NCBI GenBank assembly: GCA_018992685.1
Contig: JACVGT010000034.1
Coordinates: 1-64,000, forward strand
Length of the DNA: 64,000 nucleotides
Source of the DNA: Theionarchaea archaeon
GTDB taxonomy: Archaea; Methanobacteriota_B; Thermococci; Methanofastidiosales; SZ-28-30
Reading direction: 5' to 3'
Shown: positions 9,218-9,310 of the stretch, piece by piece
How the letters are laid out: every line of letters starts with the position of its first letter
How positions within the stretch are numbered: the stretch's first letter is position 1
Notes under the pieces: model-generated
Told to the model about the DNA's origin: nothing
What the model saw: only the letters and a program-made list of their open reading frames with translations
Database searches by the model: none
Position numbers and translations under genes: made by a program

Positions 9218-9310
9218 ATGAAGTACGTAGAACCTGAGGTATTTGAGTTTGCAGAGGAGAGCATAACCGACAAATGCCTCGCCATGTGGGCTACTTTTAC
9301 ACCTACTTAA
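9218..9310 (+). CDS. Putative RiPP precursor peptide, 30 aa (MKYVEPEVFEFAEESITDKCLAMWATFTPT)
   Basis: Below the ORF-track cutoff. Perfect GGAGGTGA RBS, own TATA box, T-tract terminator, YxxPxV RRE-binding motif, directly upstream of the RRE-rSAM. Confidence 0.8.
   Translation: MKYVEPEVFEFAEESITDKCLAMWATFTPT

Follow-up and report, generated by a model that had tools for sequence, protein, structure and literature searches.

Does a 30-codon open reading frame (ORF) that falls below the size limit of an ordinary gene list encode the substrate of the radical S-adenosylmethionine (rSAM) enzymes encoded beside it, and if so, what kind of peptide would be made from it? The question is raised by positions 9218-9310 of a 64,000-nucleotide stretch of DNA from a Theionarchaea archaeon (assembly GCA_018992685.1, contig JACVGT010000034.1), the whole of which is called the window here. 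An earlier reading of the letters alone, referred to as the sequence-only reading, had proposed a hidden 30-residue precursor with a lasso-like leader and a core unable to form a lasso. We found that the ORF, its ribosome-binding site and its conservation across loci are all present, and that it lies directly upstream of a rSAM/SPASM gene whose product carries a recognition element (RRE) of the kind found in pathways for peptides that are ribosomally synthesised and post-translationally modified (RiPPs). In our judgement, it is likely that this ORF is the precursor peptide of a small, rare RiPP cluster family in an uncultured, apparently archaeal lineage, and the product is probably a short peptide bearing cross-links, from a family not yet described.

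The ORF and its flanking elements are given below together with their counterparts in L102, the one true ortholog locus returned by a scan of metagenome contigs, and on a contig of the sequencing run X13.

9218-9310, plus strand: precursor ORF, 30 codons and a stop; counterparts at L102:553-645 and on the X13 contig.
9206-9213, plus strand: Shine-Dalgarno site GGAGGTGA, 4 nt before the ATG; the L102 ortholog has GGAGGTG 6 nt before its ATG.
9166-9172, plus strand: TATA-like A/T-rich box TTAAATA, a possible archaeal promoter element read from the letters, about 49 nt before the ATG.
9339-9359, plus strand: oligo-T tract, a possible partial terminator between the precursor and the rSAM gene; L102 is also T-rich there.
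9218-9271, plus strand: proposed leader, residues 1-18, with invariant Y3 V4 E5 P6 E7 V8 F9 E10 F11, E13 E14 and T17.
9272-9307, plus strand: proposed core, residues 19-30, with C20-L-A-M-W-A25 invariant (9275-9292), T28 and P29 invariant, and residues 19, 26, 27 and 30 variable.

The segment 9218-9307 is translated on the plus strand as MKYVEPEVFEFAEESITDKCLAMWATFTPT and is closed by a TAA stop at 9308-9310. The ORF had been described as absent from the ORF track, and it is indeed missing from the default list; this reflects only the 60-residue start of that list, as the ORF is included when the minimum is set at 20 (min_aa 20). One public contig (P0001) carries a gene call of the peptide, and gene callers did not call it as a protein in any ortholog contig. 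The site GGAGGTGA occurs six times in the window against 3.87 copies expected by chance, a count that alone means little. From the ORF list, four of the five other copies were found 5-7 nt before the starts of long ORFs (31122, 32408, 55457 and ~42284), and thus GGAGGTGA is a working Shine-Dalgarno motif in this organism. In L102, the sequence TTTATAA is present about 39 nt before the ATG. A hairpin terminator after the ORF was considered and rejected, because the folding energy of the 3' spacer was no better than that of shuffled sequence (z -0.07), leaving the oligo-T tract alone; no Rfam family was found within 8800-9600. A 5-bp palindrome (CCTAC / GTAGG, 9303-9316) reaches across the final codons and stop of the ORF but has not been conserved in L102, and the folding energy of this region was also no better than that of shuffled sequence.

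Conservation of the ORF beside a homologous rSAM gene, which the sequence-only reading had named among its checks, was borne out in L102. The peptide comparison rests on two full sequences (window and L102) and one partial sequence (run X13). The intact L102 ORF, MSYVEPEVFEFMEENLTENCLAMWASATPY, also has 30 codons and ends 71 nt before the rSAM gene. Of the 30 residues, 21 are identical in the two peptides, and different codons encode 13 of them. The differences between the two ORFs at codon positions 1, 2 and 3 number 6, 5 and 21, with a pN of 0.20 and a saturated pS. The use of different codons for identical residues, together with the third-position excess, indicated that the ORF is under selection at the protein level. 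Furthermore, a 12.5-kb contig of run X13 aligned to the window at 9205-9294 only, that is, over the Shine-Dalgarno site and codons 1-26, with eight differences (~91% identity), and both flanks of this 90-nt island were unalignable. The four differences listed for it (9235, 9253, 9256 and 9262) are all synonymous third-position changes, in P6, A12, E13 and S15. Past the match, the X13 variant completes a Thr codon with its third base and reads on through Pro and Asn to a stop, so that it is two residues shorter. A 326-nt contig of run X12 showed four differences, all upstream of the ORF. Judged by these comparisons of sequence, the 9218-9310 ORF is a real gene, far beyond chance and under purifying selection over its whole length.

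A reading in which the ORF arose by chance, or serves as a short regulatory upstream ORF of the rSAM gene and is no precursor, would draw on its size of only 30 codons, on its matching no Pfam or NCBIfam family and on the oligo-T tract that follows it. The purifying selection extends over the full length including the CLAMWA block, and an attenuator peptide needs neither an invariant six-residue block near its C-terminus nor a YxxP motif beside an RRE-bearing enzyme. In addition, other rSAM/SPASM genes of this genome have upstream ORFs of 29-36 codons preceded by Shine-Dalgarno sites. Together, these points make such an origin extremely improbable.

The family appears to be very small. No paralog was found in the same genome, where the search returned the peptide itself alone, and a two-sequence profile run over 133 genomes of the phylum returned only its own locus as a convincing match, the next best (E 0.0019) lying inside a 152-residue frame. 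Among 1.84 billion representative proteins, the peptide itself was recovered along with three long proteins (492-1166 residues), two of them matched over 11-17 residues only and the third listed without a matched stretch, and all three were taken as chance. A word-index search with a 45-residue reading of the frame returned the peptide alone.

The N-terminal part of the peptide has the character of a leader. Both full sequences keep the Y3-x-x-P6-x-V8 motif and T17 unchanged. In lasso leaders, Tyr stands at -17, Pro at -14, Leu at -12 and Thr at -2 (PMC10368454, available in part). The sequence-only reading had placed the cut after D18, and its arithmetic is correct: Y3, P6, V8 and T17 would then stand at -16, -13, -11 and -2. 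A cut after residue 19 would put the motif at the canonical -17/-14/-12, Thr at -3 and the invariant Cys at the start of the core. The boundary could thus be after residue 18 or after residue 19. A 2025 survey describes a W/Y/LxxP/L/I recognition sequence as common to the RREs of lasso, PQQ and StsC sactipeptide systems and as not specific for a class (PMC12710340, available in part), and an earlier survey counted ~300 discrete RREs of the 'lasso model' beside rSAM enzymes (PMC7470986, available in part). Because the distance from Tyr to Thr is one residue short, the lasso models were under cut-off or unmatched and the motif is not class-specific, the term 'lasso-type' can be used for this leader by analogy only, and 'YxxP-type leader' is a safe label on the present alignment. 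Of the lasso-like leader proposed earlier, the invariant YxxPxV and T17 stand, and the specific tie to lasso peptides is weakened.

No Asp or Glu occurs beyond residue 18 in the window peptide or the L102 peptide, and no PF00733 Asn-synthetase-like cyclase was found among the 20 ORFs scanned in window 1-23279 or the eight L102 proteins, the only PF00733 match of the genome lying on another contig (C5). A lasso fold is thus excluded for this peptide, in agreement with the sequence-only reading. The invariant CLAMWA block is followed by Thr or Ser, and a Thr-Pro-X end is found at a variable distance from it. Residue 19 is Lys in the window and Asn in L102; residue 27, a Phe in the window, is replaced by Ala in L102 and is missing in the shorter X13 variant; residue 30 is Thr in the window and Tyr in L102, and the X13 variant ends with Thr-Pro-Asn. 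Phe had been proposed as a cross-linking residue and the C-terminal Thr as the target of a kinase, and neither proposal is supported by this variation. As Lys19, Phe27 and residue 30 vary, any conserved modification must be independent of Lys, Phe and the C-terminal Thr, and a Lys or Phe cross-link is no conserved feature. Triceptide cyclophanes follow an aromatic-X-X motif in the core, and a W24-A25-(T/S)26 triplet is present in all three variants.

Six enzyme genes occur in the same order in the window and in L102, five of them on the opposite strand and running towards the rSAM 1 gene, as follows.

9381-10670, plus strand: rSAM/SPASM enzyme 1 (rSAM 1), 429 residues, with an N-terminal PqqD-type RRE; it starts 70 nt after the precursor.
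10734-12161, minus strand: conserved protein of 475 residues with no known family; the L102 ortholog is 54% identical.
12198-13742, minus strand: B12-binding rSAM enzyme; ApyD 147.4 and rSAM_ocin_1 133 bits, both under cut-offs; ortholog in L102.
13739-14359, minus strand: transglutaminase (TGase)-like cysteine protease, 206 residues, a candidate leader peptidase; PF01841 34.5 bits, over cut-off.
14364-15419, minus strand: rSAM/SPASM enzyme 2 (rSAM 2), 351 residues, without a fused RRE; ortholog in L102.
15420-15713, minus strand: discrete PqqD-family RRE protein; PF05402 65.4 bits.

The precursor ORF is directly upstream of rSAM 1 in both loci, and the two rSAM 1 proteins are 60% identical. 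L102 differs in that a major facilitator superfamily (MFS) transporter is inserted in the operon and the PqqD gene is followed by an M29 aminopeptidase. The search with the rSAM 1 protein gave seven orthologs at 60-74% identity and then nothing above 32% (83 proteins at E <= 1e-20, 8000 candidates scored), and the scan of genome contigs gave distant rSAM relatives only (<=32% identical). Four contigs (11886, 13072, 17710 and 22063 nt), matched by size and taken to be the same, appear in the ortholog sets of both rSAM 1 and the protease, so these two genes would travel together. The protease has six relatives in 5.8 billion clustered proteins (seven matches including itself, 1184 candidates), and no counterpart was found in the 40 related genomes searched with the enzyme. 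No second conserved small ORF was found upstream of the discrete PqqD gene, and therefore the peptide is the only candidate substrate for the whole enzyme set.

The sequence of rSAM 1 contains the CxxxCxxC motif and the full set of conserved SPASM cysteines, with Pfam scores of 80.5 bits for Radical_SAM and 40.4 for SPASM. Its PqqD match covers the first ~80 residues at 22.6 bits, just under the 23.4 cut-off, and the PqqD region of the L102 ortholog scored 32.5 bits. The best NCBIfam match of rSAM 1 is StsB of Streptomyces sparsogenes, near full length, and the thioether-synthase models AlbA (82.9 bits, cut-off 850) and PapB (81.3, cut-off 340) also matched it under their cut-offs, so that it belongs to no curated thioether-synthase family (StsB, AlbA, PapB, SkfB or SCIFF). 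The YhhB-type cyclophane model was not among the best 25 of its 83 NCBIfam matches. The arrangement of an RRE-bearing rSAM enzyme adjoining a precursor with an invariant Cys20 is the pairing seen in sactipeptide and ranthipeptide systems. StsB is an MftC-related rSAM/SPASM sactisynthase that makes Cys-to-C-alpha thioethers in a short Cys-containing precursor with a discrete RRE as helper (PMC10288494, available in part), and StsC-type RREs read a motif similar to the one in our leader, W/Y/LxxP/L/I (PMC12710340, in part). The StsA/StsB/StsC system differs from the present one in several respects: the StsB match scored 126.6 bits where the cut-off is 625, StsA receives three Cys-to-Gly sactionines whereas the core here has one Cys and no Gly, and the cluster here has in addition a second rSAM/SPASM enzyme, a B12-binding rSAM enzyme, a TGase-like protease and the 475-residue protein, in an apparently archaeal host.

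Among the remaining enzymes, the B12-binding rSAM protein is likely a C-methyltransferase. The protein of 475 residues matched no Pfam or NCBIfam family, and its AlphaFold2 model was unusable (pLDDT 39.8). Its N-terminus possibly has a nucleotidyltransferase fold, as suggested by an Atlas lead to NTP_transf_2/Polbeta clusters, and BLASTP between this protein and the PF14907 protein of the window gave nothing meaningful. The TGase-like protease scored 20.5 bits with PF13471, under the cut-off, and its Cys106, His148 and Asp162 are invariant in all seven sequences. The discrete PqqD protein likely starts at the ATG at 15692, judging from its alignment with L102.

The discrete PqqD protein and the protease recall the B1/B2 module of lasso systems (TbiB1, TfuB1, FusE). 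The two best PDB sequence matches of the discrete PqqD, both weak, are TbiB1 (E 0.013) and TfuB1 (E 0.022); the protease has a TGase fold with an invariant Cys-His-Asp; the leader has a Y-x-x-P-x-(aliphatic) motif and a conserved Thr near the junction, as in the lasso motif (PMC10368454, in part); and a kinase adjoins together with a nucleotidyltransferase of the N type, though in the window alone. The locus is unlike lasso systems in that the cluster has no Asn-synthetase-like cyclase and the core no Asp/Glu acceptor, which in lasso peptides is at core position ~7-9; three rSAM enzymes are present instead of the cyclase, the PqqD and protease genes are split by rSAM 2, the lasso models of NCBIfam are under cut-off or unmatched, and the Tyr-Thr spacing is one residue short.

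Several observations weigh against a precursor read by both RREs, modified by the rSAM enzymes and freed by a lasso-like module. The readable peptides are two full and one partial only, with L102 the sole ortholog contig compared at the DNA level. The -17/-14/-12 spacing needs a cut after residue 19 and Thr(-2) needs one after residue 18. No similarity could be detected between the two RREs, and their reading of the same motif is not evident. The discrete PqqD scored 38.2 bits with lasso_PqqD_Strm (cut-off 70), level with ScmD at 38.0, the GeoRSP PqqD model scored about as well as the lasso model, and the L102 copy ranks ScmD first. The model of the protease is mediocre (pLDDT 58.9), its best Foldseek matches are generic TGase-like cysteine proteases at E 2.7e-3 and weaker, and none of the lasso B2 models of NCBIfam matched it, even with E allowed to reach 1. 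No enzyme of the cluster reached the curated cut-off of any characterised family, which leaves the chemistry a guess. No RNA run was listed with the locus among public sequencing runs, and runs X12 and X13 left parts of the stretch uncovered, which is not evidence either way; likewise, in the predicted complex of discrete PqqD, protease and peptide, a control equalled the complex in score, which gives neither support nor counter-evidence.

The cluster in the window is flanked by the following further genes.

16166-17191, plus strand: HprK-related kinase; HprK_rel_A 63.9 bits, under the 200-bit cut-off.
17130-18413, plus strand: PF14907 nucleotidyltransferase, an accessory gene.
18505-21313, minus strand: ABC-2 type transporter of two permeases and an ATPase, a possible exporter; not in the 10 kb of L102.

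Upstream of the precursor, the window has a TldD/PmbA pair (5740-8435), a flavin reductase and a metallo-beta-lactamase-fold gene. The L102 contig reaches 552 nt beyond the peptide on its upstream side, so the comparison covers the genes downstream of that point. A second, separate TldD/PmbA-type metalloprotease pair lies at 54138-56796, so that two such pairs occur within 50 kb, one of them adjoining the peptide cluster.

The kinase bears on the full model of the sequence-only reading, in which a lasso-type leader is cut after D18, SPASM enzymes form a Cys-thioether or a Trp/Phe cyclophane and the HprK-like kinase phosphorylates Thr30. In paeninodin, a C-terminal Ser is the target of the kinase. 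A gap of 450 nt separates the discrete PqqD from the kinase and the PF14907 nucleotidyltransferase, T17 is invariant, and kinase and N genes accompany B1/B2 in clusters of phosphorylated lasso peptides of the paeninodin type, including that of BsfK of Bradymonas, where an HprK-related kinase and a PF14907 protein likewise stand beside a PqqD-type RRE (PMC10368454, in part). The proposed target residue is not conserved here, however, being Thr, Tyr or Asn across the three variants, and BsfK rejected Tyr in place of Ser (PMC10368454, in part). In addition, the 10 kb of L102 showed neither the kinase nor the nucleotidyltransferase, the window kinase scored well below its family cut-off, and Phe27 and Lys19 are not conserved. 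We hold this model to be improbable.

A different view of leader removal is compatible with a RiPP precursor: the TldD/PmbA pair or an aminopeptidase would remove the leader and the TGase-like protein would do another job, for example cross-linking or deamidating. The adjoining TldD/PmbA pair is 780 nt upstream, with the second pair free to serve housekeeping, and TldD/E is known to remove the leaders of other modified peptides (PMC10885120, available in part). The M29 aminopeptidase adjoins the PqqD gene in L102, and the TGase-like protease is not recognisable as a lasso B2. On the other side, the conservation of the pair is uncheckable in L102 because of the contig end, and the TGase-like gene is kept inside the operon with its Cys-His-Asp intact in all seven sequences. 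We regard this alternative as rather unlikely.

The peptide could also be the scaffold of a redox cofactor in the style of PQQ, mycofactocin or CTQ and no secreted natural product. This locus and the mycofactocin (MftA/B/C) and PQQ (PqqA/D/E) systems all combine a short peptide with a rSAM/SPASM enzyme and a discrete PqqD chaperone, the pairing of discrete PqqD and rSAM/SPASM enzyme resembling MftB/MftC and PqqD/PqqE. The NCBIfam matches of rSAM 2, all under cut-offs, are NirJ2 (182 bits), AhbD (180), GeoRSP (172) and MftC (162). On the mycofactocin model it scored 161.8 bits against the equivalog cut-off of 265, and on PqqE 113.9 against 381. The metallo-beta-lactamase-fold gene, TldD/PmbA and flavin reductase just upstream and the invariant Cys and Trp would also fit a cofactor. 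Unlike these systems, the locus has a peptide with variable C-terminal residues and transporter genes in or beside the cluster; no partner dehydrogenase was seen; and the family is very rare, with no counterpart in the 40 related genomes searched with the enzyme or, by the peptide profile, in 132 further genomes of the phylum. The substrate motifs of mycofactocin and PQQ are a C-terminal Val-Tyr and a Glu/Tyr pair, respectively, and the peptide here has neither. A cofactor role thus appears very improbable. The uncharacterised SynChlorMet cassette of NCBIfam (ScmD/ScmE/ScmF) likewise combines a PqqD relative with two rSAM/SPASM proteins; ScmD is the best model for the L102 PqqD and joint best for that of the window, and ScmE scored 130.7 bits for rSAM 2, with these scores far under the cut-offs of 100 bits for ScmD and 400 for ScmE. 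Searching by name gave no relevant paper for SynChlorMet, GeoRSP or the HprK-related kinase.

We therefore return to the ORF as the precursor of a cross-linked RiPP, for which a pathway can be proposed from observed genes, each chemical step being what we infer from them. The acidic residues 1-18 with the Y-x-x-P-x-V-F-E-F stretch would act as the leader and be bound as a strand by the PqqD-type RREs, both the one fused to rSAM 1 and the discrete one. The two rSAM/SPASM enzymes and the B12-binding rSAM enzyme would then modify Cys20-Leu-Ala-Met-Trp-Ala25 and the following Thr/Ser, the likeliest changes being a thioether formed by the lone Cys, a carbon-carbon cross-link at Trp24, or both, together with C-methylation. 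In the simplest scheme, one rSAM/SPASM enzyme may join the Cys20 sulfur to a carbon of a downstream residue, and the other may make a second link, with Trp24 as the obvious partner, or act on the C-terminal Thr-Pro-X, while the B12-binding enzyme would C-methylate. The TGase-like protease, aided by the discrete PqqD as in lasso B1/B2, would cut the leader near Thr17, after residue 18 or 19, and a transporter would export the product of ~10-12 residues: presumably the ABC-2 system beside the cluster here and the MFS transporter inside it in L102. No macrolactam or lasso fold would be made, and the adjoining kinase and nucleotidyltransferase of the window genome would be optional tailoring genes at most. 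Going further, we tentatively suggest, as a possibility that stops short of being probable, an undescribed RiPP class of sediment archaea in which a lasso-type PqqD/protease module has been recombined with three rSAM enzymes and the 475-residue protein to make a cross-linked, methylated product of ~10-12 residues around CLAMWA, possibly with a link between Cys and the Trp region not seen in known rSAM peptides.

Some observations elsewhere in the window and the genome were made in passing. Another rSAM/SPASM gene lies at 37578-38759, with 292 bits for TIGR04084 (AF0577-type; cut-off 225) and weaker PapB and YhhB matches. A tRNA-Val(AAC) call at 43716-43809 on the minus strand is 94 nt long, above the standard tRNA size, and may contain an intron. 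Matches to rSAM 1 numbered 38, 52 and 42 in three genomes of one genus (that of the window, G000, with G001 and G002; 2.5-3.0 Mb) and 0-8 in each of the other 38 related genomes searched, a very large expansion of rSAM/SPASM paralogs in that genus. In the genome of the window, three paralogous ORFs of 29-32 codons, each with GGAGGTG before it (C3:57029-57127, plus strand; C7:100360-100449, minus strand; C19:17743-17841, minus strand), lie 100-360 nt upstream of other rSAM/SPASM genes. All three have (R/K)K(L/V)E as an N-terminal motif and finish with W-K-E-x-K-x-x-C-L at the C-terminus, which gives them the look of a second precursor family that annotation has missed. The rSAM/SPASM gene at C1:57505-58689 (minus strand) has an N-terminal extension, and about 20 nt upstream of it a 36-codon ORF preceded by a Shine-Dalgarno site consists largely of Val-Pro/Phe-Pro repeats and may be another precursor type.

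Systems of this general kind, in which RRE-bearing rSAM/SPASM maturases accompany a short precursor, are well known, and many of them are uncharacterised. The novelty lies in the peptide family, in the pairing of a TGase-like protease with a discrete PqqD where no cyclase is present, alongside three rSAM enzymes and an orphan 475-residue protein, and in the apparently archaeal host. No archaeal SSU rRNA was found in the assembly, and it is the best-matching NCBIfam models that point to the Archaea. No description of this cluster type was found in the literature searched. Archaeal ribosomal natural products are an area only beginning to be investigated, according to a 2026 paper (PMC13692751, available in part). 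Few of them have been characterised, and the locus is a defined, very small test case: a single 30-residue substrate whose core block of six residues is invariant, and six enzymes conserved along with it. The locus also marks a gap in annotation, since the substrate gene is shorter than the usual ORF cut-offs, and at least four other rSAM genes of the genome have similar unlisted short ORFs upstream. The locus could reveal a new rSAM reaction on a single Cys/Trp pair, and it could show if the leader-removal logic of lasso B1/B2 operates outside lasso peptides.

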